From NCBI GenBank assembly GCA_964387825.1, contig CAYLWZ010000003.1, forward strand, positions 2,267 through 66,266: 64,000 nucleotides of DNA. The letters run 5' to 3'. Positions within the stretch are counted from its first letter, which is position 1. Every line of letters begins with the position of its first letter. The stretch comes from an uncultured Candidatus Saccharibacteria bacterium (GTDB lineage: Bacteria; Patescibacteriota; Minisyncoccia; Minisyncoccales; GWA2-38-27). The notes under the pieces were generated by a model, which saw only the letters and a list, made by a program, of their open reading frames with translations, ran no database searches and had not been told where the DNA came from. Both the position numbers and the translations under genes were made by a program. This document shows, piece by piece, positions 7,092 to 62,447 of this stretch.

Positions 7092-7198
7092 TTAACTATA
7101 TTAGCACTTAAAGCAAAATTGCCAACAAAGAGCGCGCCATTCTTGTTTTATACTCTCCAATGAGATAAAATAAATAAAACTAAAGAAAAAATTTTATT

Positions 7199-13932: not shown

Positions 13933-16900
13933 ATGAAAATTTCTTTGTTTGATATTTTTAAAAAAAAGGCGAAAATTTCCGAAGAACCTTTTCAAAAAGA
14001 GCCATTAAGGATCGCTGATATTGTTTCTCCTTCTTATATTGAGGTCAAACAAAATTACATCAAGATGGGAGAAAGCTTTACTAAAAGTTACTTCGTTTTT
14101 TCTTATCCAAGATATTTAAATACCGGCTGGCTCTCCCCGATAATCAATCTCAATATACCGATGGATATTTCTTTCTATTTTCATCCGGTCTCCAGTGAAA
14201 AAATTTTAAAAAAATTGAGAAAAAGAGTCACCGAGGTTCAAGCTGAGTTATCAGAAAGAGAAGAAAAAGGATTAATTAAAGACCCGACATTGGAAACCGC
14301 CTTTCAGGACTTAGAAGAACTTAGAAATAAACTCCAAACTGCCCAAGAAAGAATGTTCCATTTCAGTTTATATATCACAGTTTACAGTAAAACAGAAAAA
14401 AAATTAGACGACATAGAAACTAGTTTGAGGTCTATATTGGAATCCCGTTTGATTTATATTAAACCGGCCCTTTATCAGCAGAAAGAAGGATTTACCTGCA
14501 CCTCTCCTTATAATCTGGACGTCCTAACAGTTTCTAACTTGATGAATACCGCTCCTCTTTCAAGCACTTTTCCTTTTGTTTCCCCTGATTTAAGCTCAAA
14601 CGAAGGGATTCTTTACGGAATCAATAAGCATAACAATTCCCTTGTTTTATTTGACCGTTTTACTTTGCCTAACGCCAATTCGGTAATTTTTGCCACTTCC
14701 GGCGCCGGGAAAAGCGTAAGAGGAGACAGTCCTGTTTTGATAAAAGATAAAAAAGGGGAAATTCAACTTACGAAAATCGGCTCCTTAATTGAAAATACAA
14801 TAAAAAAACAGGGACTTGTTCAAATTGACGAAGAATTAGAAGGAACAATTAATCCGAAAATTAAAGTTTTTAGCTTTAATAAAAACTTTAAAGGAGAATG
14901 GTCTAAAGTAACCGTAGCCGCCAGAAAAAAAGCGCCTAATTTTTTCTATGAAATTAAGACCAAAAGCGGCAGAGAAATTACTGCTACTGCCGACCATAAT
15001 ATATTAATTTTTAAAAACGGAAAAATAATTGCCGCTAAAAGTTCTGAAATAAAAAAAGGAGATCATATTCCTCTGCCCCGGAAAATATCTATTAGCCAAA
15101 AACCGTTAAAATATTTAAATCTGTTAAATCTTCTTAAAAATTCAAAAAAAGTTTACATAATCGGCGCGGAAAATTTTCTAAAAAGAAATTATGGAATTCT
15201 CAAGAAGGTTATTATAGACGAAAAATACGACCGCTATCTTTATCGGTATCGCGACAGCCGGCCTGTTCCTATTCAGTATTTTTGGAAAATTTTGAATCTT
15301 CTTAAAATTGATTTTAAAAATCCTGATTTTAAAAATTTGAAAGTTACTTCAAAAAACGGGAAAAGGCAATATTCGTTGCCCGTTAATTTTCCAGTCACGA
15401 CGGCGCTTTTAAAAATCTTGGGGTTTATTGTCGCCGAAGGAACGACAAAAGACAAAATTATTATAATAAGCAACACAAATTCCGAGTTTCTCCAAGGCGC
15501 TAAGTCTGCCTTTGATTCCTTAGGCATCCCTTCTTTTTATATAGACCGAGGCGTTAACAGCGCCAGCCGGGTATTTATAGAGACGGTCAAAACTCTTGGA
15601 GGTTTTGGAAAATCCAAACAAAAAAAAGTTTGTCCTTTTATTTTTAATTTAGAGAAAAGACAAATTGCCTCATATTTGTCGGCTTACTTTGAAGGAAACG
15701 GGGGAGTGGAAAACCACGAAATAACGGCTTGCTCGAAATCTAAAAAATTGATTTCAGAGATTTCTTATCTCCTATATTATTTCGGCATTATTGCCAGAAT
15801 TTCCAAGATTAAAAAGAAAACTCCTTACTGGGAACATAAAAAATCTTATTATAAATTAGTAATTTCAGGGCAAGATAATTTAAAAAAATTTATTAGCGAT
15901 ATTAATTTTATTTCAAAAGAAAAAGAAGATAAGCTTAAACAGACCGTTAAAAAACAAGGAAATACCAATGTTGATGTTGTTCCCGGAATACAAAGCATTT
16001 TTAGAGAAATTCAACAATTGTTTGGTTTTCAGTTATATGATATAAAAAATTTCCGGGCGCTAAAAAACGGGACGTTTAACCCTTCTCCCGAATTGCTTAA
16101 AATAATAATACTGAAAATCAAAGAAAGAGTGCAATACTTTAAAGATTTGACTTCTACTTTTGGGATTTTAAGCAAACTTCCTGAATTATCTGAAATCGTC
16201 AATCTTGGCAAAAACAATAAAGAGTTAAATAGAAAATTATGGCAAACATTAGGACAAAGCTGGCGAGTAATGAAAAACGAAGAAGTAAGACCGGGTTCTA
16301 TTAATGCCTTCAGGGCAATTGAAACTATCTCAGGCGAAAAATATCAACTCCAAGAAATTAAAGAAGTAATTCATTCAGGATTTAAAGAAACAGGATTGGC
16401 AATAAAATACCTTAACCGTTCCTTACAACCTGCCCTAACTTATCGTTTCCAAAACAACACCGATTATAAAATGATACAAACTGCGGCTCAATTTATCTGG
16501 CAAAATTACCAAAAAATACTGAATAACGGAATTCCCCAAGTTGAAAAAAAATTAGAGCAACTCAAAGCATTGGCCGAATCTAACCTTTTTTGGGACCCAA
16601 TTATAAAAATTAAAAAAATTAAGAATAAAAAAGAAAAATATGTCTACGATTTAACCGTTGACAACGAGGTCTTTCTAACAGGCGAAGGGGGAATGTTTGT
16701 CCATAATTCTTATACGGTTAAATTAGAAGCGCTGAGATATTTGATGTTGAATATAGATTGTATAATCATAGACCCGGAGAATGAATATAAATTTCTGGTT
16801 GACGCGGTTGGCGGCTCTTTCTTTAATGTTTCTTTGGCTTCCCCCAGCCATATTAATCCTTTTGATTTGCCCTCTCCAAGAGAAGACGAAAAGCCAGAAG

Positions 16901-17730
16901 ACGTTTTGAGGTCAAATATTATTAATTTAGTGGGATTAACGAGAATTATGCTTGGAGGGCTCACTCCAGAGGAGGACGGCATTATGGACCGGGCAATTAC
17001 AGAAACCTACGCCGCAAAAGACATTACTACGGAAAGCGACTCAAAATTCTGGGGCAAAGAACTTCCTTTCCCCATAATGTCGGACTTAGAAGAAGTCCTC
17101 TCGGGAATGGAGGGAACCGAATCTTTAATCAAACGGCTCCAAAGATTTACCAAAGGAGTTTATTCTAGTTTTTTCAACCAACCTTCTAATATTAACATCA
17201 GTAAAAGATTGGTTGTATTCGGCATCCGCGATATGGAAGACGAACTCCGGCCAATGGCTCTTTTTATAATTTTAAGATACATTTGGAAAACAGTTACTTC
17301 AAAAGCAAAGAAAAGATTATTAATTGTTGACGAGGCATGGTGGATGATGCAAAACGAAGACAGCGCTTCTTTTCTTTTTGGAACAGTAAAAAGAGCGAGA
17401 AAATACTGGCTCGGAGTAACCACTATTACTCAAGACGTCAACGATTTTATGAAGTCAAAATACGGCCAGCCGATAATCACCAATTCTTCTTTAGCCGTTT
17501 TATTAAAACAAAATGCAGCTACCATAGAAACGGTTAAAAAAACCTTTAACTTAACCGATGAAGAAAAAATGACTCTATTGGACACACCGGTAGGAGAAGG
17601 GATATTCTTCGCCGGAACAAAGCATGTTCTAATTAAAGTTGTGGCTTCTTACGCCGAAGACCAAATAATTACTACTTCCCCCGGAGAAATAGCTAAAATA
17701 AAAGAAGCGAAAAAAGAATTAGGAGATTAA
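13933..17730 (+). CDS. VirB4/TraC-like type IV secretion ATPase, interrupted by an intein
   Basis: Walker A FATSGAGK|S is split. After removal of 14713-16707 it reads ..SGAGKSYTVKLEALRYL... Walker B LLIVDEAWWMM. About 600 aa of extein, the usual VirB4 size range. Confidence 0.8.
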   Translation: MKISLFDIFKKKAKISEEPFQKEPLRIADIVSPSYIEVKQNYIKMGESFTKSYFVFSYPRYLNTGWLSPIINLNIPMDISFYFHPVSSEKILKKLRKRVTEVQAELSEREEKGLIKDPTLETAFQDLEELRNKLQTAQERMFHFSLYITVYSKTEKKLDDIETSLRSILESRLIYIKPALYQQKEGFTCTSPYNLDVLTVSNLMNTAPLSSTFPFVSPDLSSNEGILYGINKHNNSLVLFDRFTLPNANSVIFATSGAGKSVRGDSPVLIKDKKGEIQLTKIGSLIENTIKKQGLVQIDEELEGTINPKIKVFSFNKNFKGEWSKVTVAARKKAPNFFYEIKTKSGREITATADHNILIFKNGKIIAAKSSEIKKGDHIPLPRKISISQKPLKYLNLLNLLKNSKKVYIIGAENFLKRNYGILKKVIIDEKYDRYLYRYRDSRPVPIQYFWKILNLLKIDFKNPDFKNLKVTSKNGKRQYSLPVNFPVTTALLKILGFIVAEGTTKDKIIIISNTNSEFLQGAKSAFDSLGIPSFYIDRGVNSASRVFIETVKTLGGFGKSKQKKVCPFIFNLEKRQIASYLSAYFEGNGGVENHEITACSKSKKLISEISYLLYYFGIIARISKIKKKTPYWEHKKSYYKLVISGQDNLKKFISDINFISKEKEDKLKQTVKKQGNTNVDVVPGIQSIFREIQQLFGFQLYDIKNFRALKNGTFNPSPELLKIIILKIKERVQYFKDLTSTFGILSKLPELSEIVNLGKNNKELNRKLWQTLGQSWRVMKNEEVRPGSINAFRAIETISGEKYQLQEIKEVIHSGFKETGLAIKYLNRSLQPALTYRFQNNTDYKMIQTAAQFIWQNYQKILNNGIPQVEKKLEQLKALAESNLFWDPIIKIKKIKNKKEKYVYDLTVDNEVFLTGEGGMFVHNSYTVKLEALRYLMLNIDCIIIDPENEYKFLVDAVGGSFFNVSLASPSHINPFDLPSPREDEKPEDVLRSNIINLVGLTRIMLGGLTPEEDGIMDRAITETYAAKDITTESDSKFWGKELPFPIMSDLEEVLSGMEGTESLIKRLQRFTKGVYSSFFNQPSNINISKRLVVFGIRDMEDELRPMALFIILRYIWKTVTSKAKKRLLIVDEAWWMMQNEDSASFLFGTVKRARKYWLGVTTITQDVNDFMKSKYGQPIITNSSLAVLLKQNAATIETVKKTFNLTDEEKMTLLDTPVGEGIFFAGTKHVLIKVVASYAEDQIITTSPGEIAKIKEAKKELGD
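14713..16707 (+). mobile_element. Intein (665 aa) with LAGLIDADG homing-endonuclease domain, inserted in the VirB4 P-loop
   Basis: N-terminal splicing block SVRGDSPVLI, block B TxxH (TADH), LAGLIDADG motifs LGFIVAEGT and YLSAYFEGNGG, block F YVYDLTVDNEVFLT, terminal FVHN followed by +1 Ser. Confidence 0.85.
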
Positions 17731-41616: not shown

Positions 41617-41841
41617 ATGGCAAGGCAATTTACAGCAAATTATAAGAAAAGCGGAAAATGGTTTTTGGGATGGGTAGAAGAGATTCCAGGGGTCAATACT
41701 CAAGGAAGAACTCTTAGAGAGACAAAACAAAACCTTAAAGAGGCTCTTTTGCTAATCCTTGAGACGAATAGAATTATTAGCAAGGGAGAAATTGCCAAAG
41801 GAAAGATTATTCGGGAACCGCTTTCAATTTCTGTAAAATGA
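41617..41841 (+). CDS. hicB: HicB-family antitoxin
   Basis: FTANYKKSGKWFLGWVEEIPGVNTQGRTLRETKQNLKEALLLILE is the typical HicB/UPF0150 N-terminal fold sequence. ATGA overlap with hicA. Confidence 0.75.
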   Translation: MARQFTANYKKSGKWFLGWVEEIPGVNTQGRTLRETKQNLKEALLLILETNRIISKGEIAKGKIIREPLSISVK

Positions 41842-42032
41842 AGCGGAAAAACTTAATTAAACACATTATTAAAAATAGATGTATTTTTATTAGGGAAGGC
41901 GCGAGACATAGCGTCTTTTTTAATTCTCAAACGAGGCGGAGTTCTACTGTTCCTCGGCATAATGTAATTGATAATTTTTTAGCAAGGAAAATTTGCCAAG
42001 ATCTTGGCATAGAATTACCTTCTAAAAAGTAA
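41838..42032 (+). CDS. hicA: HicA-family mRNA interferase toxin
   Basis: ..CIFIREGARHSVFFNSQTRRSSTVPRHNVIDNFLARKICQDLGI matches the HicA pattern (G.H......g....vP.H.ei...l...I.k.lgi). Confidence 0.75.
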   Translation: MKRKNLIKHIIKNRCIFIREGARHSVFFNSQTRRSSTVPRHNVIDNFLARKICQDLGIELPSKK

Positions 42033-42466: not shown

Positions 42467-42585
42467 CAGAAAAATTTCCAGATAACTAATAATTGTTTTT
42501 ACGGTTGTATTTTACGTCGAACGATTATTTTTTTAAGGACACAATAAATGCCGATCAAGGGAATATATTATTAATAAATAAAAAT

Positions 42586-43605
42586 ATGAAATTATCCGAT
42601 CAAAAATTAAAAGTCGGGGTTGTAGGTCTTGGCCATCAATCTCTGGAAGACCATATTCCGGCTATCAAAGACTCTCCAGACGTTGAGCTATTTGGAGTAG
42701 TGGAACCAGAAAGAGATAAATTAAGTCTTTTTTTAAAAGAAAATAAAAAAGTTAAAGGATATACTAGTTTTGATAAATTAATAAAAAATCAAAAGTTAGA
42801 TTTTGTTATAATCGCTCTTCCCCATCATCTCTATTATGAAATCATTAAAAAAGCGATTAAAAATAAAATCCATATTTTAAAAGAGAAACCTTTTGCTATC
42901 TCCCTAAGACAGGCTAAAGAATTAGAAGAAATGGCTCGAAAAAACAAGGTTCAAATTATGGTCACCCTACAGCGGAGATTCAATCCAATCTATTCAACTT
43001 TTTTTCAACTTATTGATAAAATTGGAAAACCATTTTTTGTTGAAGCCAAATATACATTCTTCACTGATAAATCTCACGAAGGATGGCGTGGCAAGAAAGA
43101 ATTAGCCGGCGGAGGATGTTTAATTGACATGGGGTACCATATTATTGATCTTTTGATGTGGTATTTTGGTCTTCCAGACGAGATATTTGCTGAGATGTCC
43201 TGTTGGGCAAAAGAAGGCGCTGTATATGATGCTGAAGACACGACAGAGGTGATATTTAGGTATTCAAGGAAAAAAATCTGGGGATCCCTTCTTGTTTCAA
43301 GGGTGATTCCCCCAAAGCAAGAGTATATCAACGTATTTGGCACTAGAGGGATTATTCATCTTGAGCGGGGAAGAATTGAACGCCTTTCTCCTTCGGGAGA
43401 ATTACAAGAATCCCTCCAAAGGAAACACTCTTGGCCTTCTGCGGCTCAAGATCAATTAGAATATTTCATAAAAGTAATTCGTGGAGAGAAAGAAAACATT
43501 AATAATCCCGAATTTCATTTTCGTCATCTGGCTTTTATTGAGGCGGCTTACGAATCAACTAAATTACATCGATATGTTAATCCCAAAAAATTACTTAATT
43601 TATGA
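42586..43605 (+). CDS. Gfo/Idh/MocA-family NAD(P)-dependent sugar oxidoreductase
   Basis: Start moved to MKLSDQKLKVGVVGLGHQS (Rossmann GxGxxG). EKP motif (ILKEKPFA). The listed upstream extension lacks similarity to this family. Confidence 0.8.
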   Translation: MKLSDQKLKVGVVGLGHQSLEDHIPAIKDSPDVELFGVVEPERDKLSLFLKENKKVKGYTSFDKLIKNQKLDFVIIALPHHLYYEIIKKAIKNKIHILKEKPFAISLRQAKELEEMARKNKVQIMVTLQRRFNPIYSTFFQLIDKIGKPFFVEAKYTFFTDKSHEGWRGKKELAGGGCLIDMGYHIIDLLMWYFGLPDEIFAEMSCWAKEGAVYDAEDTTEVIFRYSRKKIWGSLLVSRVIPPKQEYINVFGTRGIIHLERGRIERLSPSGELQESLQRKHSWPSAAQDQLEYFIKVIRGEKENINNPEFHFRHLAFIEAAYESTKLHRYVNPKKLLNL

Positions 43606-44870
43606 AAAAACAAAAATCTAAATTAGCTATTTTAGGTGGGTTAAAAACTATTATTCAAAAAGAAGCACATTTTATGTGGCCCCCAATCACTAAACAGATA
43701 GAAAAAATAGTGATCCAACAACTTCATCAAAGTATTTCTATTTATGACCGTAGTGGGATTTTTAAAGAATTTGAAGATAGTTTTGCAGAATATCATAAAA
43801 AAAGATATGCTCTTTTGTGTAGTTCTGGGACGCTAGCTATTCATTCAATGTTTATTGCGGCTGGATTCAAACAAGGAGACGAAGTAATTTGTCCTGCCTA
43901 TACTTTTTTCGCCACAGTCACTCCTCTTTTGTTTACTGGAGCTAAGCCAATATTATGCGACATTGATGAAAACGGGAATATTGACCCAGAAGAAATTAAG
44001 AGAAAAATTACTCCGAAAACAAAAGGAGTAATTATCACTCATATGTGGGGAGTTCCTTGCCAAATGGATGAAATTGTAAAAATATGTAAAAAAAACAAAT
44101 TATTTTTATTAGAGGACTGTTCTCATGCCCATGGAGCAAAATATAAGGGAAAAGTCATTGGCTCTTTCGGCGATCTATCGGCTTGGAGTATCCAGGGAGC
44201 AAAAAATGTTACTGGCGGAGAAGGAGGTATTTTACTAACTAGTAATAAAGAGTTCTATTATCGAGCCTTACTTTTAGGACACTATAATAAACGCTGCAAA
44301 CAAGAAATTCCTAAAAATCATCCCTTTTATAAATATGCAGTTACGGGAATGGGATTAAAATATCGAGCACATCCTTTATCCGTTACAATAGCATATGAAA
44401 TTTTTAAAAATTTAGAAAAATATTTAGAAATAAAGAGATTATTTGCAAAGAAGATAATAAACGAACTTAAAAATCTTCCAGGGATCTCCCTACCTTCATC
44501 ATTTTTTGATTCTAAAATTAAACCTTCTTGGTATGCTTTTGTCTTTCAGTATAAAAAAGAAAAGCTCAAAAATCTTCCTGTTGAGAAATTTTTTGAGGCC
44601 TTGCAATCCGAAGGACTGGAAGAAATAGATAGGCCATGCTCTACTTGTCCATTAAATCTTTTACCTCTTTTTCAGACTCCTGAAAAGTTATTCCCTATTT
44701 ATAAAAAATATCCATTCTCTTATCGGCCGGGAGATTTTCCAAGAGCAGAAAAATTTTACCATAACGCTATTAAATTGCCTGTTTGGGGGCAAAAAGGGAA
44801 TTTGAGACTTGTAAAATTATATATTCAGGGAATAAAAAAAGTAATTAAAAATTTTACCGACCTTCTATGA
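43602..44870 (+). CDS. DegT/DnrJ/EryC1/StrS-family PLP-dependent sugar aminotransferase
   Basis: Family layout: SSGTLAIHSMFIAAG, DEVICPAYTFFATV, LLEDCSHAHGAKYKG, candidate PLP-Lys region SIQGAKNVTGGEGG. ATGA overlap with the oxidoreductase gene. Confidence 0.8.
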   Translation: MKKQKSKLAILGGLKTIIQKEAHFMWPPITKQIEKIVIQQLHQSISIYDRSGIFKEFEDSFAEYHKKRYALLCSSGTLAIHSMFIAAGFKQGDEVICPAYTFFATVTPLLFTGAKPILCDIDENGNIDPEEIKRKITPKTKGVIITHMWGVPCQMDEIVKICKKNKLFLLEDCSHAHGAKYKGKVIGSFGDLSAWSIQGAKNVTGGEGGILLTSNKEFYYRALLLGHYNKRCKQEIPKNHPFYKYAVTGMGLKYRAHPLSVTIAYEIFKNLEKYLEIKRLFAKKIINELKNLPGISLPSSFFDSKIKPSWYAFVFQYKKEKLKNLPVEKFFEALQSEGLEEIDRPCSTCPLNLLPLFQTPEKLFPIYKKYPFSYRPGDFPRAEKFYHNAIKLPVWGQKGNLRLVKLYIQGIKKVIKNFTDLL

Positions 44871-45313
44871 ATAAAAAAATAATCCAAAGAGTAGTTTTGG
44901 CAGGGGTTATCTTTAAAGATAATAAGGTTTTAATTTTACAAAGAAATAAAAGTGAAAAAGTTTTTCCTAATATGTGGGAACTTCCTGGCGGAAAAAGAGA
45001 ATTTTTGGAATCATCAAGGAATTGCTTGGTACGAGAAATAAAAGAAGAAACAGGCCTTGAAAACATAGAGATTATAATGCCTTTTTCTGTTTTTGATTAT
45101 CAAATTGGAAAAGAAGAAGAGATTAAGGATTCTACCCAAATAAACTTTTTAGTTAAGATAAAAGGAATTGAAGAAGTAAAATTAAGTAGCGAACATCAAA
45201 ACCTTGCTTGGATTGAAAGAAAAGAAATTAGCCAACGTAAATTATCAAAAAACACACAAAAAGTTATCCAGATAGCTTTCAAGTTAATCAAAAACTTTAA
45301 CGGGAAAATTTAA
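44867..45313 (+). CDS. NUDIX hydrolase
   Basis: Nudix box GGKREFLESSRNCLVREIKEETGL (GX5EX7REUXEEXGU). Confidence 0.85.
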   Translation: MNKKIIQRVVLAGVIFKDNKVLILQRNKSEKVFPNMWELPGGKREFLESSRNCLVREIKEETGLENIEIIMPFSVFDYQIGKEEEIKDSTQINFLVKIKGIEEVKLSSEHQNLAWIERKEISQRKLSKNTQKVIQIAFKLIKNFNGKI

Positions 45314-45345: not shown

Positions 45346-45494
45346 GAAAAAATAAAGTGGCCGATAAAATTAAAAGTAGCCACTTTTTATTTTTGTCAGC
45401 AGTTGCTTTACAAGAGCGTAATGTGGGATAATCGCTTAGTTGAATTCAAATTAAGCGATTTTTTGTTGTTTTTTGGGATTAGGGATAACTTTTA
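45346..45494 (+). repeat. Copy A of a ~125-150-nt non-coding module (promoter-like element overlapping a terminator-like hairpin)
   Basis: Shares tttttatttttgtcagcagttgctttacaagagcgtaatgtgggataatcgctt.gttg..ttcaaattaagcgattttttgttgttttttg with 48429-48556. TTGCTT-18 nt-GATAAT with TG extension. Hairpin aatcgctta/taagcgatt plus T-run. Confidence 0.7.
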
Positions 45495-45583
45495 TTTGAC
45501 AAAATTTCTAAAACATATTAAAAAGAAAATAGATATTTGACAATTAAATAATCCTAAAAAAGAAAAGAAAGGAGGTGAGAGAA

Positions 45584-46702
45584 ATGAAAGAAGATATTAA
45601 ACATTATCTTGAAAAAAGCGAAGATAGTCATTGGTTTTCTGTACAAATCAAGCCCGTAGGGAGTATGTGTAATTTGAGGTGTAGATATTGTTATGCAAAA
45701 CCCTATCCATATTCAAAAGAGAAAGTAATGTCAAAAAAAGTACTTGAGCGTGTTGTTCAACAGTGTTTACAAGATTCTTTTTACCCAACCTTTAGTTGGC
45801 ATGGAGGAGAGCCGACCCTTGCGGGATACGATTTTTTCCAATACGCTATGGAATTAATGGAAGAGTATAAATACTCTGACCAAAAGGTAAGAAATTTAAT
45901 TCAAACTAATGCCACAAAAATTACGCCAGGATTAGCTAAATTGTTTAGGCAATATAATTTTGGAGTAAGTGTTAGTTTGGATGGCCCAGAACATGTACAC
46001 GGAATTAATCGAATACTAATAGATGGCGAAAACTCATTCTCTGAGGTTATGCAAGGAATCAAAATTCTTCGAGAATTTGGAGTCGACCCTTCTGTTATCT
46101 GTACTGTTTCCAAAGAAACACTACCTTTCGCGGCAGAAACCTTTAATTTTCTGGTTTCGCAAGGATTTAAAAGAATAAAATATAGTCCAGTATTTGATTC
46201 GGCAAAAGATGAATTTAGCATCACAAACGACGAGTGGTTCGAGTATTTAAAAACAGTCTTTTATCAATGGTTTGAGATCGGAGATCCAGCAATTCAAGTG
46301 CGTGATCTAGACGAAGTGATTGTTTGGCTATCAGAAAAAACGTTGAACCTTTGCTCGGTTGACAGAACCTGTTTACATTGGGTTTCAATTAATCCTACTG
46401 GAGAGATTTATCCATGCGAATACCTAAAGGAGAGGTATTATTACGGGAATATCACTCAAATGGAACTTAGTGATGTTTTTTATGCTTCTGCATTCCAGGA
46501 GTTTAAGAAAGTTTATGAAACTATTCCTTTGAAATGTCAACGATGTGAATTTTTTAAGTTATGTGGTAATGGTTGTCCAGCAACAAGAATAAGAGATGGG
46601 AAGATTTCATCAAATGGCATTTACGCTTTTTGCGAGGAAAGACAATCTTTGTTCTGTGAAATTAAAAAAGTGTTTAACGCTACACTGAAAGGAGGTGATT
46701 AA
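45584..46702 (+). CDS. Radical SAM enzyme with C-terminal SPASM domain (anSME/peptide-maturase family)
   Basis: ATG at 45584 with GGAGG 8 nt upstream. CX3CX2C cluster CNLRCRYC, GGEPTL, QTNATK, SLDGP; SPASM-type Cys motifs CEYL...CQRCEFFKLCGNGC. Confidence 0.85.
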   Translation: MKEDIKHYLEKSEDSHWFSVQIKPVGSMCNLRCRYCYAKPYPYSKEKVMSKKVLERVVQQCLQDSFYPTFSWHGGEPTLAGYDFFQYAMELMEEYKYSDQKVRNLIQTNATKITPGLAKLFRQYNFGVSVSLDGPEHVHGINRILIDGENSFSEVMQGIKILREFGVDPSVICTVSKETLPFAAETFNFLVSQGFKRIKYSPVFDSAKDEFSITNDEWFEYLKTVFYQWFEIGDPAIQVRDLDEVIVWLSEKTLNLCSVDRTCLHWVSINPTGEIYPCEYLKERYYYGNITQMELSDVFYASAFQEFKKVYETIPLKCQRCEFFKLCGNGCPATRIRDGKISSNGIYAFCEERQSLFCEIKKVFNATLKGGD

Positions 46703-46703
46703 G

Positions 46704-46814
46704 ATGAAGAAGCGGGAATTTATCCTGACGGTACTCGCCAAAGTGGCGAAGGAAGCAGAAAACATGAAGCCAGATGACTGGCGAGGACTTCTGCACAATT
46801 GGATAAAGTGTTGA
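46704..46814 (+). CDS. Unannotated 36-aa peptide, candidate RiPP precursor
   Basis: ATG 1 nt after the rSAM stop, preceded by GGAGGTG (46691-46697). MKKREFILTVLAKVAKEAENMKPDDWRGLLHNWIKC. Locally GC-rich. Followed by a hairpin. Confidence 0.55.
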   Translation: MKKREFILTVLAKVAKEAENMKPDDWRGLLHNWIKC

Positions 46815-46828
46815 TTAATACCTTTATC

Positions 46829-46865
46829 GTTGCGGGAAATTTCTTATTGGAATATTTCCCGCAAC
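46829..46865 (+). terminator. 12-bp hairpin after the peptide ORF (weak T-run)
   Basis: gttgcgggaaat / atttcccgcaac with a 13-nt loop; no strong U-tract, so terminator function is uncertain. Confidence 0.4.
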
Positions 46866-46972
46866 ACTACTTAATGCAATGCGATAATAAATGTTCAGTA
46901 TTGGATTAAAATTTGGTTATATTTTTCTAATCTGTTAAACTAAAGATAGCTAAAATAGGAAGGAGATCAAAA

Positions 46973-47734
46973 ATGAAAAAAGAAACTAACTTACAAAAAT
47001 CTTGGGATGAAATGTCGCTATATTATCAGAAAAAATATAGCGACTCTTTAATGTTTTACGAAAAGACAATCCATCTAAAGCTTTTCGGGAAGATAAAGGA
47101 CAAGAAACTTCTTGATCTTGGTTGCGGTGGAGGGCAAACTTCTATTTTTTTTGCCGAACAAGGAGCTATAGTCACGGGAGTTGATTTTTCGAAAAGACAA
47201 ATAGATTTTGCGAGAATTTTAGCAAAGAAAAAAAGAACAAACAAGGTTTTATTTCAACAAGGCAATATGGAAAACCTATCTATGTTTAAGGATTGTAGTT
47301 TCGATTTGGTTAACTCCAGCCACACTATTCATTACGTTAAAAACATACAGAGATGTTTTAACGAGATCTTCCGAGTACTTAAACCGAAAGGAAAATTTGT
47401 TTTTAGCGTTTCACATCCTTTAAATCATATCGTTGAAAAAGAAAATGATCAATTTGTAATAAAAAGAAGTTATTTCCAGAAAGGGAGGTATAGGTGGGAT
47501 TGGGAATATCCGGCAGAAGGACTAAAATATTCTATGTATCTGTTTATAAGAAAAGTAGATGATTATTTTATTGCTTTGAGAAAATCTAGTTTTATTATTG
47601 AAGACCTGTTAGAACCCAAAACTTATTTGGACAAGAACAGCCCATGGCGTGAGCAGAATAGTTCAAAGGAAGAAATGATTCCTGGGGCATTAATTTTCGG
47701 GGCTAAAAAACCCTCCCAAAAGGCAAAAACCTAA
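46973..47734 (+). CDS. Class I SAM-dependent methyltransferase
   Basis: Motif I LLDLGCGGGQTSIFFA, acidic post-I VTGVDFS, motif II/III region FDLVNSSHTIHY / LKPKGKFVFSV. Confidence 0.85.
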   Translation: MKKETNLQKSWDEMSLYYQKKYSDSLMFYEKTIHLKLFGKIKDKKLLDLGCGGGQTSIFFAEQGAIVTGVDFSKRQIDFARILAKKKRTNKVLFQQGNMENLSMFKDCSFDLVNSSHTIHYVKNIQRCFNEIFRVLKPKGKFVFSVSHPLNHIVEKENDQFVIKRSYFQKGRYRWDWEYPAEGLKYSMYLFIRKVDDYFIALRKSSFIIEDLLEPKTYLDKNSPWREQNSSKEEMIPGALIFGAKKPSQKAKT

Positions 47735-47737
47735 CCT

Positions 47738-47778
47738 AAAGAGCAGTTATCAAAATAAGATTCCTGCTCTTTTTTATT
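47738..47778 (+). terminator. Intrinsic terminator of the methyltransferase gene
   Basis: aaagagcag ... ctgctcttt followed by tttttatttc. Confidence 0.65.
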
Positions 47779-47870
47779 TCTTTATCTGAAAAAAATAAAA
47801 AAATTATTAAGTTATGAACTATTATATATTACTTTATTTTTTGGTAGGCGTATTGTAAAAAGTAGGAAAA

Positions 47871-47924
47871 GTAGGGACGTTTCCGACTTTTCTCACTTAA
47901 TTTAAAAGTCGAAAACGTCCCTAC
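47871..47924. repeat. Palindromic repeat family B (gtagggacgtttccgactttt ... aaaagtcgaaaacgtccctac)
   Basis: 21-bp arms with one mismatch. Flanked by further (a)gtagg/cctac(t) units. Second copy at 54022-54084. Confidence 0.7.
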
Positions 47925-48037
47925 TTTCTCTACTTTCCTATTTTCCGTCCCTACTTTTCTGCCGGTATATTTGCAATGCCAGTGATTGTAGAATTCTATA
48001 AGGAAGGAGTCCAGAATGTATCTGGCATTATGTAAAG

Positions 48038-48068: not shown

Positions 48069-48317
48069 TTATCCTTTAATATACACTTTTCCTTGAATTA
48101 TTTTGTTGGCTGGCCGATTGTGATACAAGGCTTCTCTTGCAAAAGTTTGTTTGCATTTCGGACACTTTAAGTCTCCTGCCGTGTTATCTTTAATAATTTT
48201 GTCTTTGTAGCATTTTACCAAATGTCCTATTCCTTCTTTTCTGTATTTGTAGAGTAAAGTTCCACAATTGGCACAAAAAACTTTTATCGTGTATGCTCGG
48301 ATTTTTTTTCTTGCCAT
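48069..48317 (-). CDS. Small zinc-ribbon protein (hypothetical)
   Basis: Two CxxC pairs (CANCG, CPKCK). Good SD (aaggaggt) upstream. No family recognised. Confidence 0.5.
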   Translation of the reverse strand: MARKKIRAYTIKVFCANCGTLLYKYRKEGIGHLVKCYKDKIIKDNTAGDLKCPKCKQTFAREALYHNRPANKIIQGKVYIKG

Positions 48318-48428: not shown

Positions 48429-48556
48429 GAAAAATAAAGTGGTCACTTTTTATTTTTGTCAGCAGTTGCTTTACAAGAGCGTAATGTGGGATAATCGCTT
48501 GGTTGGGTTCAAATTAAGCGATTTTTTGTTGTTTTTTGAGCTTGTGGATAACTTTT
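48429..48556 (+). repeat. Copy B of the non-coding promoter/hairpin module
   Basis: See 45346-45494. The listed ORF 48364..48594 is just this repeat translated. Confidence 0.7.
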
Positions 48557-48640
48557 GTCGGAAAACACTTGACAAATGTTTTAGAGTAGAGTAACCTATG
48601 AACAGAGCGTGGAAAAGTAAAAAATAGATAACGCCAAAAT

Positions 48641-48745
48641 ATGGACAATAAAATTTTACTAATTATTGCCATAATAACGATACCAATATCATTAACCTTT
48701 TTGGTTTGGTTAATCAGCAGATATTACCGGAGGAAACAAAAGTAG
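48641..48745 (+). CDS. Possible 34-aa single-TM peptide
   Basis: MDNKILLIIAIITIPISLTFLVWLISRYYRRKQK: hydrophobic helix plus basic tail. Weak ribosome-binding site. Its 3' two-thirds lie inside the 155-bp direct repeat. Confidence 0.3.
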   Translation: MDNKILLIIAIITIPISLTFLVWLISRYYRRKQK

Positions 48746-48840
48746 TTTGTCAGAAATTGGCAAGTCGAATAAAGAGGATTGTATCTAATCTTTTTTCTTC
48801 GGTTCGGCAATTAAAAAAACCGAATGGTTCTTTAAAAATA
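48686..48840 (+). repeat. Left copy of ~155-bp direct repeat flanking the GNAT/CYTH cassette
   Basis: Near-identical to 50399-50551 (by eye, one substitution and one 1-nt indel). Contains hairpin ttcggtt..aaccgaa. Confidence 0.8.
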
Positions 48841-48909
48841 AAAAACTTTTAAGTATAAATGGTGTCGGATCTGAATTTTTTTAAAGACGTTGAATTATAA
48901 GATAATAAA

Positions 48910-49884
48910 ATGATTAAAATATCTACAATAAAAGTAAGTAATATCTGGGAGAACGATAAAAGAGTAAAAGAAATAAGAGAGAAACTTTTGCCTAAAATAA
49001 AAAAATGTAAAGAGTGGTTTGATTCTCAAGACTTAGAGCATCAAATACTTTTTAGATTAACGACTTATCATAATTGGAAACCTAAATTAGAAGAAGTTTT
49101 TCAGGAACAAAAACATATTATATTAGAAAGAATGAAAAATGCGAGAGTGAATCCTAAAAAACTATTCTGTTTTGGGAGAGAACGAACAGGTGCTTGGCAA
49201 ATGCAATGGGGAAAAGATAAGAATAATTTATATTGTATTAATAATGATAATCGCAAAAGAGAAATCTTTTTTAGAGAAATTACATTAGAAGATGAAAAAG
49301 AAGCAGCAAGAAGCATTATTAATGATTATCATTATATTCACTGGTCAAGATGTAATAAAGAGAAAGGAATGATATTCGGGTTTTTTGTTAAAGGGCATAA
49401 ATTACCATTCGCAATAGAAGAAATAGAACCTTGCGACATTTCAAGAAACTATAAAAAAGCTATATTGATGATGGCTGATATCAATTATCATACTACTTGC
49501 GAATTAACAAGATTTTATTCAGTCCCTAATACTCCTAAAAATATGATAAGTTTATTAGATAAAATGGTTGGAAGGGAGTTAAAATATAGAGGATATGAAT
49601 GGATGATGACAGCGATGATGCCTGCTTTTGCTAAAACTAAGAGTTCAACGATTGCTGGGGGGATAGATATTCCTTTATTTGCCAAAGAATTGAAACTTGA
49701 ATTCTTTAAAAGAAAAGATAATTATTATGAAGTTTGTGTCGATAGAAAAAAAGAAAAATTAAATAAAAAAACAATTGGTTCCGTTTGGAAATTATCTCCT
49801 GTTATTGAGATGATTAAATCTTTAAAACCAGAATTAAAACCAAACTTAAAAAAGAATATGTATTACTATGTTGAAAAGAATTGA
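48910..49884 (+). CDS. Hypothetical protein with C-terminal GNAT-fold, Mom-like acyltransferase motifs
   Basis: Motif order IINDYHYIHW .. MIFGFFVKG .. CELTRFYSVPNTPKNMISLLDKMVGRELK .. EWMMTAMMP resembles HY....fG.....G....EL.R......pkN..S......l....lvSyaD of Mom-like/GNAT enzymes. Motif-level inference only. Confidence 0.35.
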   Translation: MIKISTIKVSNIWENDKRVKEIREKLLPKIKKCKEWFDSQDLEHQILFRLTTYHNWKPKLEEVFQEQKHIILERMKNARVNPKKLFCFGRERTGAWQMQWGKDKNNLYCINNDNRKREIFFREITLEDEKEAARSIINDYHYIHWSRCNKEKGMIFGFFVKGHKLPFAIEEIEPCDISRNYKKAILMMADINYHTTCELTRFYSVPNTPKNMISLLDKMVGRELKYRGYEWMMTAMMPAFAKTKSSTIAGGIDIPLFAKELKLEFFKRKDNYYEVCVDRKKEKLNKKTIGSVWKLSPVIEMIKSLKPELKPNLKKNMYYYVEKN

Positions 49885-50389
49885 AACAGAGTATAAGTTT
49901 AGGATTAAAAATAAGGATACTTTTTTCAAAAAGATAGAGAAATTTTATATAAAAAATGCTTATTTAGAAAGTTGTAATTTTGTAATAGATGAAATATATG
50001 GAAAGAAAAGAAATCGTTATAAAGTTAGGAAAAGAACATATTATGATTTATTTCATTTTGCAATTAATACTGAAATAGAGAGAACAAAAAATATAAATGG
50101 ATTTTCAAAAGAAGAAAAAGCGTTAGAAGAAATACCTAAAGGATTTAAATTAGAAAATTCCTACAATAAAGTAAGAAATGTTTTTAGTGCCGATGGTTGT
50201 TCTATATCAATAGATTTTTATATCATAGGAGTATTTTGCGAAATAGAAGGAGAATTGAAGGACATAAAAAAAGTTGCTAAAAAATTAGGATTTAATCCAA
50301 AAGATAATATAAAAGAAGGGATAGATGAAATCTTCTGTAAAGAAATGAAAAAGAAAAATGCTGTACCTCCAGTACATTGGGGATTTTAA
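49868..50389 (+). CDS. CYTH-domain protein (CyaB-like adenylyl cyclase / triphosphate tunnel metalloenzyme family)
   Basis: N-terminal EXEXK signature (RIETEYKFRI), basic RKRTYY, C-terminal ISIDFYIIGVFCEIEGE (..D...g.G.f.EiE). Overlaps the upstream gene by 17 nt. Confidence 0.65.
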   Translation: MLKRIETEYKFRIKNKDTFFKKIEKFYIKNAYLESCNFVIDEIYGKKRNRYKVRKRTYYDLFHFAINTEIERTKNINGFSKEEKALEEIPKGFKLENSYNKVRNVFSADGCSISIDFYIIGVFCEIEGELKDIKKVAKKLGFNPKDNIKEGIDEIFCKEMKKKNAVPPVHWGF

Positions 50390-50398
50390 TTATTACAG

Positions 50399-50551
50399 AT
50401 ATCATTAACCTTTTTGGTTTGGTTAATCAGCAGATATTACCGGAGAAAACAAAAGTAGTTTGTCAGAAATTGGCAAGTCGAATAAAGAGGATTGTATCTA
50501 ATCTTTTTTCTTCGGTTCGGCAATTAAAAAACCGAATGGTTCTTTAAAAAT
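50399..50551 (+). repeat. Right copy of ~155-bp direct repeat
   Basis: See 48686-48840. The duplicated peptide tail is in frame with the CYTH stop codon. Confidence 0.8.
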
Positions 50552-50589
50552 AATAAATAAACTTTTAATTTAATAAGGGGGTGAGAAAG

Positions 50590-59969: not shown

Positions 59970-62447
59970 ATGAATTTTGAGCCTGACCAAATCTTCCTAT
60001 TGGTTACTTTTCTTTTATCTGTAGGAATTATTGCTTTAGCCGGCTGGTTTCTAATCCGCTTTTTGCGTGGGAAAGGGAAAATTTCCAGAGCTCTTAATAT
60101 GAGCTTGTTTTTAGTTACCCTGCCTAAGAAGGTAAAAAAAGGAGAAGGCGAAGCGCCTAAATCTGAAAAGGAAATTATCTCAATAATGGAGCAACTCTAT
60201 GCCAGTTTAAGTAATATTAAAGAAGGCAAAAATATCTTCATTTACGGCCGTCCCTATTTGGTTTTTGAGATAGCCACTCCCCAAAATGGCCAAGAAATAT
60301 CTTTTTATATATCTGTTCCTCGGGACCACGAAGATGTTGTTGAAAAACAAATCCATGGTTTTTATCCCGAGGCCTTGATTGAGAGAGCCGAGGATTATAA
60401 TATTTTTAATCCTCAAGGGCCGGCAGCCGGCGCTTATTTGAAATTAGTCAGAGACCCTGTTTTGCCCTTTAAAACCTATCAGAATTTAGAAAGCGACCCC
60501 CTTAACGGAATTACTAACGCTTTGAGCAAATTGGAAGAAAAAGGAGAAGGAGCGGCTATTCAGATTGTTTTTAGTCCCAATCTAACAGAATGGCAGAAAT
60601 CAGCCCTGGACATCGCCAAAGAAATACAGGAAGGAAAAAATTATTCTCAGGCCAAATCAGCGGCTGGGGGCAATTGGTTTTTTCGTTTAATTAAAGAGTT
60701 GAGCCAAGGCGTTGGTTCGTCTTCAAAAAGTCAGCAATTGTCCGAGCAAAAACAGCCAATTATCACTCCGGGACAGGAAGAAATCGTTAAGAGTTTAGAG
60801 GGAAAAGCCGCTAAAGTCGGATTTGACGTCAATTTAAGATTATTGGTTTCGGCCGGAAATAAGTTGAGGGCCGAACAGATACTTAGCCATTTAGAAGCGG
60901 CTTTTGTCCAGTTTAACGCTCCTCGTTTAAATCAGTTAAAATCAATTCGCCTGAAAGAGAAACGGGCTTTGAAAAAACTTATTTATAATTTTTCTTTTCG
61001 GCTCTTTAACAGAAAAGAGAAAATGCTTTTGAATACCGAAGAATTGACAAGTTTATTTCATTTCCCGACCGCCAATATTGAAACGCCTAAAATTAAATTT
61101 CTCAGAGCCGAGTCGGCTCCTCCGCCAGCCGATTTGCCGAAAGAGGGTATAATTTTAGGCAGGAGTTTTTACAGGGGAATAGAAACAATAGTTCGCATTC
61201 AGAAGAACGATAGGCGCCGCCATCTTTATGTCATCGGCCAAACCGGGACGGGCAAGTCCGCTTTTTTACGCAACATGATTATTCAAGACATTAGAAACGG
61301 AGAAGGCGTCGGTCTTTTAGACCCTCACGGAGATTTGGTTGAAGGAATTCTCGGTTTGATTCCAAAGGAGCGGTTTGAGGACGTGGTTGTTCTTGACCCG
61401 GCTAATTTAGAACGGCCGCTTGGCTTAAATATGCTGGAATACGACCCTAAATATCCGGAACAGAAAACGTTTGCCGTCAATGAACTGATGAATATTTTTA
61501 ATAAAATTTATGATTTAAAACAAACAGGAGGACCGATGTTTGAGCAATATACCCGTAACGCCCTTTTGCTTTTAATGGATGATCCGGCGGAAAAATTTAC
61601 TTTAATGGAAGTGCCAAAAGTTTTGGCGGATAAAGAATTCCGCGTTCATCTTTTGGCTAAATGCCAGAATATTGTCGTCAAAGATTTCTGGGAAAAAGAA
61701 GCGGAAAAAGCCGGCGGCGAGGCGGCTTTGGCCAATATAGTTCCTTATATCACTTCCAAATTCAATGTTTTTATTGCTAATGATTATATGAGGCCGATTA
61801 TCGGGCAGTCGGAGAGTTCTGTTAATTTCCGCAAGATTATTGATGAACGGAAAATTCTTTTGATTAATCTAAGCAAAGGCCGTTTGGGCGATATAAACAG
61901 CTCTTTGCTTGGTTTGATTGTAACCTGCAAGCTGTTGATGGCCGCTTTTTCTCGGATTGATATGCCCGAAGAAGAACGCCAGGATTTTTACCTTTATATG
62001 GACGAATTTCAAAATTTCGCCACTGACAGTATTGCCACTATTCTTTCCGAAGCCCGAAAATACCGGCTTTGCTTGACCATTGCCCATCAATTTATTGGCC
62101 AGTTGGATGATAAAATCCGCGGCGCGGTTTTTGGCAACGTCGGTTCAATAACCAGTTTCCGGGTCGGAGCCGAAGATGCCGAATCTCTGGCTAAGCAATT
62201 TTCTCCTGTTTTTGATGTTCAGGACTTGATTAACATTGATAATTTTAACGCTCATATTAAATTGATGATTAACAATAAAACCTCCAGGCCTTTTAATTTT
62301 TCCACTTATCTTCCGGATAAAGAGGATTTGGCTATTGCCCGGGCAACCAAAGAGCTTTCTCAGTTGAAATACGGCCGGGATAAAAATCTGGTAGAAAAAG
62401 AAATTTCCGAGCGTTGGCAGACCGCTGCTTTTAGAAAATTTAATTAG
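59970..62447 (+). CDS. VirD4/TraD-like type IV secretion coupling ATPase (FtsK/HerA superfamily)
   Basis: N-terminal TM helix, Walker A VIGQTGTGKSAF, Walker B FYLYMDEFQNF, TIAHQ sensor-like motif. About 825 aa, as for T4CPs with an extra N-domain. Confidence 0.6.
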   Translation: MNFEPDQIFLLVTFLLSVGIIALAGWFLIRFLRGKGKISRALNMSLFLVTLPKKVKKGEGEAPKSEKEIISIMEQLYASLSNIKEGKNIFIYGRPYLVFEIATPQNGQEISFYISVPRDHEDVVEKQIHGFYPEALIERAEDYNIFNPQGPAAGAYLKLVRDPVLPFKTYQNLESDPLNGITNALSKLEEKGEGAAIQIVFSPNLTEWQKSALDIAKEIQEGKNYSQAKSAAGGNWFFRLIKELSQGVGSSSKSQQLSEQKQPIITPGQEEIVKSLEGKAAKVGFDVNLRLLVSAGNKLRAEQILSHLEAAFVQFNAPRLNQLKSIRLKEKRALKKLIYNFSFRLFNRKEKMLLNTEELTSLFHFPTANIETPKIKFLRAESAPPPADLPKEGIILGRSFYRGIETIVRIQKNDRRRHLYVIGQTGTGKSAFLRNMIIQDIRNGEGVGLLDPHGDLVEGILGLIPKERFEDVVVLDPANLERPLGLNMLEYDPKYPEQKTFAVNELMNIFNKIYDLKQTGGPMFEQYTRNALLLLMDDPAEKFTLMEVPKVLADKEFRVHLLAKCQNIVVKDFWEKEAEKAGGEAALANIVPYITSKFNVFIANDYMRPIIGQSESSVNFRKIIDERKILLINLSKGRLGDINSSLLGLIVTCKLLMAAFSRIDMPEEERQDFYLYMDEFQNFATDSIATILSEARKYRLCLTIAHQFIGQLDDKIRGAVFGNVGSITSFRVGAEDAESLAKQFSPVFDVQDLINIDNFNAHIKLMINNKTSRPFNFSTYLPDKEDLAIARATKELSQLKYGRDKNLVEKEISERWQTAAFRKFN

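Follow-up and report, generated by a model that had tools for sequence, protein, structure and literature searches.

In a 64,000-nucleotide (nt) stretch of DNA from an uncultured Candidatus Saccharibacteria bacterium (GenBank assembly GCA_964387825.1, contig CAYLWZ010000003.1, positions 2,267 to 66,266), referred to below as the window, a gene for a radical S-adenosylmethionine (SAM) enzyme with a SPASM domain is followed, one base after its stop codon TAA (46700–46702), by the ATG (46704) of a 36-codon open reading frame (ORF), MKKREFILTVLAKVAKEAENMKPDDWRGLLHNWIKC, which ends with TGA at 46812–46814. An earlier note on this DNA had proposed that the small ORF encodes a leader-plus-core precursor for the adjacent enzyme. 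This general idea is supported by the co-occurrence of peptide and enzyme at about 24 independent loci and by purifying selection, and we consider it very likely that the two genes are a precursor/maturase pair of the type that gives rise to peptides that are made on the ribosome and modified after translation (RiPPs). The locus is organized as follows.

45571–45577, plus strand: ribosome-binding site GGAGGTG of the radical SAM gene, 6 nt 5′ of its ATG at 45584, read from the sequence
45584–46702, plus strand: radical SAM/SPASM enzyme of 372 amino acids (aa), very likely a peptide maturase (Pfam PF04055 and PF13186)
46691–46697, plus strand: ribosome-binding site GGAGGTG of the precursor gene, within the 3′ end of the radical SAM gene (translational coupling), read from the sequence
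46704–46814, plus strand: gene of the likely precursor peptide, 36 aa and stop (homologues adjoin orthologous enzymes; logo of 65 peptides; synonymous-only change in the core)
46829–46865, plus strand: conserved RNA hairpin of 16 pairs with no T-run (folding energy and compensatory changes)
46973–47734, plus strand: class I SAM-dependent methyltransferase of 253 aa, candidate tailoring enzyme of the nearest subclade only (Pfam Methyltransf_31/_11/_25)
47740–47775, plus strand: terminator-like hairpin GAGCAG...CTGCTC plus T-run, 3′ of the methyltransferase gene, read from the sequence

The last of these features was missed by our consensus scan because its loop is longer than 8 nt. The gene arrangement described in the earlier note was confirmed by the sequence and, for the enzyme, by Pfam: the radical SAM ORF with its CNLRCRYC motif and SPASM end, the ATG behind GGAGGTG and the methyltransferase following on the same strand. 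In the 36-aa product we distinguish a putative leader (residues 1–24, 46704–46775) and a putative core, D25-W-R-G-L-L-H-N-W-I-K-C36 (46776–46811), in which W26 is encoded at 46779–46781, W33 at 46800–46802, K35 at 46806–46808 and C36 at 46809–46811.

Reality and conservation of the small gene

The 36-codon ORF is a genuine gene, because its homologues recur beside orthologous enzymes and its core changes only synonymously among close relatives. Homologues of the enzyme were found in more than 120 clusters at 42–79% identity, and 65 distinct homologous peptides of 23–53 aa were gathered, covering about 24 independent loci with an orthologous enzyme in the same range of identity (L005, L006, L007, L008, L009, L010, L084–L089, L091, L093, L164–L186 and others). 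Thus, the peptide does stand beside orthologous radical SAM genes in related genomes, mostly within about 40 nt downstream of the enzyme stop; it lies upstream in L174 and L007 and 3 kb off in L008, and L009 has two tandem copies of it (5063–5281). The loci of the enzyme clade without the peptide were L004 and L090 (both on contigs that are cut short) and L092 (decayed enzyme gene). The radical SAM gene of L092, in which an in-frame TGA passes only as sense (code 25) and the SPASM end looks decayed, is possibly a pseudogene; L007, an SR1 locus, was also translated with code 25. The hosts of the family are candidate-phyla-radiation (CPR) bacteria/Patescibacteria, SR1 and Saccharimonas-like bacteria, small Bacilli, Clostridia and alphaproteobacterial metagenome-assembled genomes. 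The window itself belongs to the CPR, since Parcubacteria, Nealsonbacteria and Patescibacteria are the named relatives of its ComM/YifB housekeeping protein.

Synonymous and nonsynonymous differences in the last 12 codons were counted as 5/0 between the window and L086, 3/0 between the window and L087, and 4/0 between L086 and L087, a pattern that indicates purifying selection on the core. The stop codon is at a fixed position, and its identity varies among close relatives (TGA, TAG, TAA). As a control, 143 loci with anSME-like enzymes (942 kb, six frames) were scanned for W-x-[KR]-C-stop, which gave ten matches, none of them a family-like peptide. Searches with the peptide matched 16 clusters by word index and 44 when 1.84 billion representative proteins were scanned in full with a HMMER profile, and no named peptide was among these clusters; likewise, no NCBIfam model matched any of the 14 family members tested, in agreement with the earlier note, which knew of no described RiPP like this peptide. 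At L166–L168 (8084–8194), gene callers placed a 56-aa ORF in an incorrect frame across the true peptide, MQKQMLLTAIQRIETHVAKQWRGIMVNWMKC, and at several other loci they called no precursor gene. Because gene callers often skip or misframe the ORF, the precursor family is under-counted in protein databases and invisible to annotation-based mining.

The peptide DNA is indeed richer in GC than its surroundings, as had been noticed (0.47–0.48 for the ORF vs 0.36 for the window); 7.7% of 111-nt windows are equally GC-rich. The GC content at third codon positions is 0.57 vs 0.23–0.32 in the neighbouring genes, and this excess of G/C-ending codons could possibly reflect mRNA structure or stability, expression level or horizontal origin. 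No known structured RNA was found in the segment by Rfam at gathering thresholds or by a tRNA scan, and on these null results, together with the coding codon pattern, we rejected the reading that it is such an RNA instead of a gene. It is also unlikely that the product controls a downstream gene in the manner of a leader or arrest peptide, since the peptide gene is the terminal gene before a terminator in most loci.

Most of the conservation lies at the C terminus, where the family consensus is [N/D]-W-R-G-x-[L/I]-x-[N/S]-W-x-K-C-stop; the leader consensus is M-x-K-K-x-F-[VL]-x-x-V-[LI]. Counting backwards from the last core residue as position 0, Trp at −3 was found in 65/65 peptides, Lys at −1 in 63/65 (Arg in the other two) and Cys at 0 in 63/65 (Asn in the other two), such that the aromatic-X-X motif W-x-[K/R] is present throughout (W 65/65, K/R 65/65). 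The two variants ending in Asn were L093 (1707–1823, W-L-K-N) and L172 from Berkelbacteria (7078–7197, W-A-R-N), and L183 (about 6129–6293), which adjoins an S66 peptidase, has an 18-aa follower after WIKC. The block around the first Trp was less strict (W at −10 in 59/65, R at −9 in 56/65, G at −8 in 56/65), and this Trp is missing entirely in L010, L089, L176 and L181. Regarding the sequence K-P-D-D-W, for which a streptide-like Lys-Trp link had been suggested, its Lys was found in only 18 of the 58 peptides having the first Trp and is replaced among close relatives (K/R/Q/H/M/A). The streptide analogy fails for this reason; the first Trp is also absent from several lineages, and SuiB/StrB-type enzymes are distant from the enzyme of the window. 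Of the core whose conservation the earlier note had proposed to test (KPDDW...C), the first Trp mostly and the terminal Cys almost always held, and the Lys did not. On the evidence of this alignment, the conserved element and presumed target is the C-terminal Trp-x-Lys-Cys rather than the K-P-D-D-W Lys-Trp pair.

The enzyme and its candidate reaction

The radical SAM cluster motif of the enzyme (C29-x3-C33-x2-C36) is invariant in an alignment of 39 sequences, and the enzyme carries SPASM-type CQRCEFFKLCGNGC. Pfam detected both domains (Radical_SAM PF04055, E = 1.8e-19; SPASM PF13186, E = 2.4e-9), whereas the RiPP recognition element (RRE) or PqqD-like element that the earlier note had also considered was absent from the enzyme, whose radical SAM domain begins at about residue 26 of 372. 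All of the 39 homologues keep seven SPASM cysteines (C263, C278, C318, C321, C327, C331 and C350), and at least 90% of them keep C257; these eight follow the Cys pattern and spacing of the sulfatase maturase anSMEcpe, in which both auxiliary clusters are fully Cys-ligated. Glu279 aligns with an Asp in the YPCD segment of anSMEcpe that directly follows the third SPASM Cys there; this Asp is D277, which has been proposed as the catalytic base. Glu279 is present in at least 90% of the family and replaced by Ala in L089 and L176.

The best NCBIfam match was anSME TIGR03942 (260 bits, cut-off 349.45), followed at lower scores by two further anSME models (189 bits vs cut-off 441, 176 vs 484), DynA (191), PapB (147), TIGR04083 (147), DarW (145), GrrM/OscB (139), AmcB (131), DarE (122) and YhhB (118), and every scoring model remained below its own cut-off. 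Apart from anSME and PapB, the scoring curated models are mostly those of cyclophane or ether-crosslink maturases. Against solved structures the sequence scored 260 bits for anSMEcpe, 116 for ChlB, 101 for CteB, 68 for TigE and 36 for SuiB, and a Foldseek search with the AlphaFold2 model of the enzyme (confidence, pLDDT, of 91) gave template-modelling (TM) scores of 0.82–0.85 for anSMEcpe, 0.79 for ChlB, 0.72 for CteB and 0.63–0.67 for SuiB. The enzyme belongs to a distinct clade, within which identity is at least 42% and outside which it falls abruptly to at most 33% for anSME-like loci.

With anSME as the best family match, and with an aminosugar-type operon of GFO/IDH/MocA-DegT-NUDIX genes directly upstream (42493–45313), it could be argued that the small ORF is spurious and that we are dealing with a common sulfatase maturase, or with a sugar dehydrogenase like BtrN that acts together with the DegT aminotransferase and the GFO/IDH/MocA oxidoreductase encoded upstream. 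We regard this as highly improbable: the small ORF is conserved with synonymous-only changes in its core, and the sulfatase signature C/S-x-P/A-x-R...TG did not occur in any window ORF longer than 35 aa in a six-frame motif scan, which agrees with the absence of a sulfatase gene reported earlier; nor was a sulfatase cluster found among the conserved neighbours of the orthologous loci. On the shortfall from the TIGR03942 cut-off, the gap between clades and the missing signature, a bona fide sulfatase maturase was rejected. The upstream genes are a separate unit because terminator-like hairpins close them, their neighbourhood is conserved at no orthologous locus, and the similarity to BtrN amounts to 36 bits confined to the Fe-S segment, by which a BtrN-like sugar enzyme was rejected as well.

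If the peptide is the substrate, as we infer from this co-conservation, anSME-type oxidation could in principle proceed on it, with abstraction of a hydrogen from C-beta of Cys36 leading to a thioaldehyde or formylglycine and hence to a reactive C-terminal aldehyde, a secondary cyclisation or a decarboxylation product. anSME is by far the nearest family and structure (260 bits, TM 0.85, 27–28% identity), and Glu279 stands where anSMEcpe has its Asp. However, the score is under the anSME cut-off, the peptide has no sulfatase motif C-x-P-x-R, the variants ending in Asn cannot undergo this reaction, one locus has the 18-aa follower after the Cys, and in L089 and L176 the acidic residue is Ala, yet their peptides end in WRKC; we therefore judge this chemistry improbable.

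A thioether in which the sulfur of Cys36 is bonded to carbon in Lys, Trp or some other residue of the core, as in the sactipeptide- and ranthipeptide-like products of PapB, CteB and NxxcB, would account for Cys at the last core position in 63/65 peptides. PapB (147 bits) and sactisynthase models do score, CteB ranks third among the solved structures (TM 0.72), and the known C-S links made by radical SAM enzymes include one from Asn C-beta to Cys sulfur (PMC11851443). On the other hand, two lineages exchange the Cys for Asn and keep W-x-K/R, the core has a single Cys and there is no RRE, whereas several Cys and an RRE are usual for such maturases, and the thioether-family scores are all far below cut-off (147 vs 340 for PapB). 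All eight SPASM cysteines are kept in the anSMEcpe spacing, which also speaks against a thioether: in CteB an open iron is available to the Cys of the substrate, whereas the clusters of anSMEcpe are fully Cys-ligated. Taken together, we consider a thioether unlikely.

By analogy with characterized enzymes, the chemistry that we favour, with roughly an even chance of being right, is a three-residue cyclophane joining Trp to Lys or Arg on W-x-K. It is favoured because W-x-K/R fits the definition of triceptides, i.e. an aromatic-X-X motif with a ring-to-C-beta link (PMC11499958; PMC12912966), because darobactin provides a precedent for a Trp-Lys C-C bond, because the RRE-less, anSME-like architecture is common to the enzyme and ChlB and the next-best models are mostly cyclophane or ether-crosslink maturases, and because the variants ending in Asn keep W-x-K/R without the Cys.

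Accessory elements, neighbours and the proposed pathway

The 12-bp hairpin that had been seen after the peptide was confirmed, its 12 perfect pairs (46829–46865) extending to 16 with a folding energy of −22.2 kcal/mol. Compensatory changes affect 6 of the 16 pairs across the window, L178, L087 and L086, pointing to a real conserved RNA element, which is probably a 3′ stabiliser or a partial terminator. The 196-nt precursor/hairpin region folds with z = −5.2, mostly because of this 3′ hairpin.

The methyltransferase scored below all NCBIfam cut-offs. Its orthologues (62–76% identity) are found 3′ of the peptide in L086, L087 and L178–L180, with fragments in L088, and are confined to this nearest subclade and missing from most of the family; L008 and L166 have class I methyltransferases that are not orthologous to it. 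In L178–L180 the radical SAM-peptide-hairpin-methyltransferase block is kept while both flanks are unlike those of the window, which argues for its being part of the cassette in the nearest subclade. The further methylation proposed in the earlier note is thus plausible for this subclade only. In L179 (2690–4801), a second, unrelated radical SAM gene of 481 aa and a GNAT acetyltransferase gene are inserted just upstream of the cassette.

Across all loci, the invariant unit consists of the enzyme and the peptide only. The following genes accompany it in other lineages.

L006/L166, L007, L008, L009, L010, L091, L174, L185 and possibly L089: two-domain ABC-F ATPase with no membrane domain, often 2–22 nt upstream of the radical SAM start
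L009, L088, L089, L092, L176 and L183 (6 lineages): S66 LD-carboxypeptidase/MccF-like peptidase
L005/L164 and L169: DUF1749 alpha/beta hydrolase
L176: C39-like peptidase
L181: transporter of the major facilitator superfamily (MFS)
L005: ABC exporter

The ABC-F protein (ABC_tran twice and ABC_tran_Xtn) is present in 8–9 lineages, and the proteins of L006, L008, L091 and L174 score 403–426 bits with NF000355, ‘ribosomal protection-like ABC-F’ (cut-off 380). No homologues of the ABC-F, S66 peptidase, hydrolase or methyltransferase were found in the flanks of the control loci (0/143). The operonic ABC-F partners, and less so S66, suggest an intracellular, possibly translation-related target with self-protection. 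That the product is a small crosslinked peptide (a cyclophane) with the ribosome or translation as its target, and that ABC-F and perhaps the MccF/LdcA-like S66 protein give self-immunity, is more doubtful; if so, this would be a RiPP class with ABC-F-type immunity, for which the literature searched gave no precedent, and a family of natural products with its centre in Patescibacteria (CPR) and other host-associated bacteria of reduced genome. In any case, the recurrent ABC-F and S66 partners offer a testable hypothesis on target and immunity.

The same ABC-F proteins, as translation-factor-like ATPases, could also fit a modified peptide that stays in the cell as a cofactor or effector instead of being secreted as an antibiotic, for instance a redox cofactor like pyrroloquinoline quinone (PQQ) or mycofactocin, or a modulator of the ribosome or of ABC-F. 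The minimal two-gene core, the lack of a dedicated exporter or leader protease at most loci including the window, and the distribution over reduced-genome lineages (Patescibacteria, SR1, Saccharimonas, small Bacilli/Clostridia, alphaproteobacterial genomes) are consistent with such a role, as would be modification at the extreme C terminus, which is also where mycofactocin is modified. However, neither an oxidoreductase nor an enzyme using a cofactor turned up as a conserved partner among the neighbours, the accessory genes show the variability of typical RiPP clusters (C39 peptidase, MFS, ABC exporter, S66), and secreted RiPPs are the more typical setting for tandem precursors (L009) and a varying core, so that we see a cofactor or effector as quite unlikely.

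Returning to the Trp-Lys cyclophane, we propose the following pathway for a two-gene RiPP-type cassette that may be extended in the window by the methyltransferase. The 36-aa product would be a precursor with an amphipathic N-terminal leader and a 12-residue C-terminal core. The co-translated enzyme would bind the leader without an RRE, cleave SAM reductively and remove hydrogen from one of the side-chain carbons of the terminal W-x-K-C. A C-beta radical of Lys or Arg might then attack the invariant Trp two residues upstream at its indole, closing the cyclophane, and the two fully Cys-ligated auxiliary clusters would re-oxidise the intermediate, for a net change of −2 Da; this would be the chemistry of triceptide synthases and of the darobactin Trp-Lys ring. 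The near-invariant Cys and the first Trp (W-R-G) may serve a second modification or recognition, and in the nearest subclade the methyltransferase may add a methyl group. In other lineages, the operonic ABC-F and/or S66 peptidase would supply immunity or processing.

Several points weigh against this proposal. The type of crosslink in the precursor is assigned by analogy, and no characterised cyclophane synthase (116 bits for ChlB) comes nearly as close to the enzyme as the sulfatase maturase does (260 bits), with all models of enzymes that form three-residue cyclophanes (3-CyFE) far below cut-off. A W-x-K cyclophane alone does not explain the near-invariant terminal Cys, nor the conserved first Trp, because the Gly of W-R-G does not permit a C-beta link. 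The methyltransferase, which sits in a shallow subclade only, may be transcribed from a promoter of its own. Finally, the window contains no ABC-F, S66 peptidase or DUF1749-type alpha/beta hydrolase, and no exporter or peptidase was found among the window ORFs scanned, so that maturation and export are unaccounted for in the window.

Regarding the surroundings of the cassette, two direct repeats of 148 nt (45373–45520 and 48436–48583, 86–93% identity, intergenic) bracket the block formed by the radical SAM, peptide, methyltransferase and zinc-ribbon genes and contain a terminator-like hairpin (45430–45460). The zinc-ribbon gene (48069–48317, minus strand, 82 aa) is convergent with the methyltransferase gene, and between the two lies a 33-nt inverted repeat (47859–47936, 91% complementary, 12-nt spacer). 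A second pair of direct repeats (48681–48844 and 50394–50557, 164 nt, 91–98% identity, intergenic) brackets the ORFs at 48910–50389, among them one of 324 aa (48910–49884) that matches the Mom protein family only weakly and below cut-off (E = 0.006). Both pairs have the look of terminator/promoter modules that were duplicated, or of a small mobile element. Elsewhere in the window, a TraG/VirB4-type P-loop ATPase of 1265 aa (13933–17730) is split by an intein with a LAGLIDADG endonuclease domain, with an ATPase resembling TrwB and coupling proteins of type IV secretion systems downstream of it (59970–62447), and two overlapping small ORFs (41617–42032, 74 and 64 aa) resemble a HicB/HicA-type antitoxin/toxin pair.

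Comparison with known systems

Literature text searches returned no description of the peptide or of the enzyme clade, and no papers on the combination of ABC-F, radical SAM enzyme and precursor or on SPASM enzymes of Saccharibacteria; the literature found on radical SAM RiPPs in Patescibacteria or on the terminal motif was, judged by titles and abstract openings, not about the W-x-K-C family. The peptide family, which has no name in the sources searched, accompanies its radical SAM enzyme in many small-genome bacteria. It is very probably a new enzyme-modified peptide, and its best reading is a new family of a known kind, the RiPPs modified by radical SAM/SPASM enzymes.

The nearest relative in sequence family and fold is anSMEcpe (PDB 4K36–4K39, TIGR03942; 260 bits, TM 0.82–0.85, 27–28% identity), with which the enzyme shares a length of about 370 aa, the absence of an RRE, the eight-Cys SPASM pattern and the acidic residue after the third SPASM Cys. 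Unlike anSME, it is under the cut-off of 349, forms a separate clade with at most 33% identity, has no sulfatase signature in its window, and has as its partner a peptide of 23–53 aa ending in W-x-K-C instead of a C/S-x-P-x-R protein. PapB and CteB resemble it as SPASM enzymes acting on Cys-containing cores (147 bits and TM 0.72, respectively), and differ in the unmet PapB cut-off of 340, the single core Cys, the absence of an RRE and the existence of Asn-ending variants.

Streptide (StrA/StrB, SuiB; K-x-x-x-W) is comparable insofar as the window peptide happens to hold K-P-D-D-W. SuiB carries an N-terminal RRE, whereas the enzyme of the window has none, and the unconserved Lys (18/58) and the distance from SuiB (36 bits, TM 0.63–0.67) also set the two apart. 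In streptide, Lys and Trp of a short ribosomal peptide are joined through a C-C link by a radical SAM/SPASM enzyme, and Trp-x-Lys/Arg motifs are crosslinked by radical SAM enzymes in W-G-K of Tryglysin/WgkB and W-P-R of WprB (PMC11851443). The enzyme scores only 72 bits for WgkB (cut-off 650). WprB has no Aux I cysteines and needs a partner, WprC, whereas the window enzyme keeps its eight SPASM cysteines and has no such partner; identity with the ‘single WxR/K’ precursor family of WprB is therefore unlikely, as far as a comparison by enzyme description goes.

In darobactin, the Trp-Lys crosslink sits on a W-S-K motif. It is a C-C crosslink made by an RRE-less radical SAM/SPASM enzyme (PMC9055067). 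Daropeptide systems resemble the present one in that DynA is the second-best curated model and in the minimal core of precursor plus enzyme, but the scores for DynA (191 vs cut-off 450) and DarE (122 vs 650) are low, the precursor has no aromatic-X-aromatic ether motif and its two Trp are seven residues apart. There is no DarBCD-type transporter either, and in place of Photorhabdus-like Gammaproteobacteria the hosts are Patescibacteria and other bacteria with small genomes.

Triceptide synthases (ChlB, PDB 9GM3; XyeB, GrrM/OscB, YhhB, FxsB, AmcB, HtkB) are likewise radical SAM/SPASM enzymes without an RRE and with an anSME-like fold, and ChlB has been crystallised with the leader of its own precursor. 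At 116 bits and TM 0.79, ChlB is a relative and not a member of the same family, and the 3-CyFE models (XyeB, GrrM/OscB, YhhB, FxsB, AmcB) give 71–139 bits vs cut-offs of 310–450. Unlike triceptide precursors, the peptide has a single motif at its extreme C terminus, followed by a near-invariant Cys, and its crosslink is a predicted one; the motif itself is of the triceptide kind, an aromatic-X-X with a basic third residue (compare HtkA H-T-K, MicA Y-S-K, F-T-K). If the Trp-Lys cyclophane is indeed formed, chemistry of the triceptide/darobactin type would extend to an anSME-proximal enzyme clade, in a compact two-gene system that can easily be expressed.

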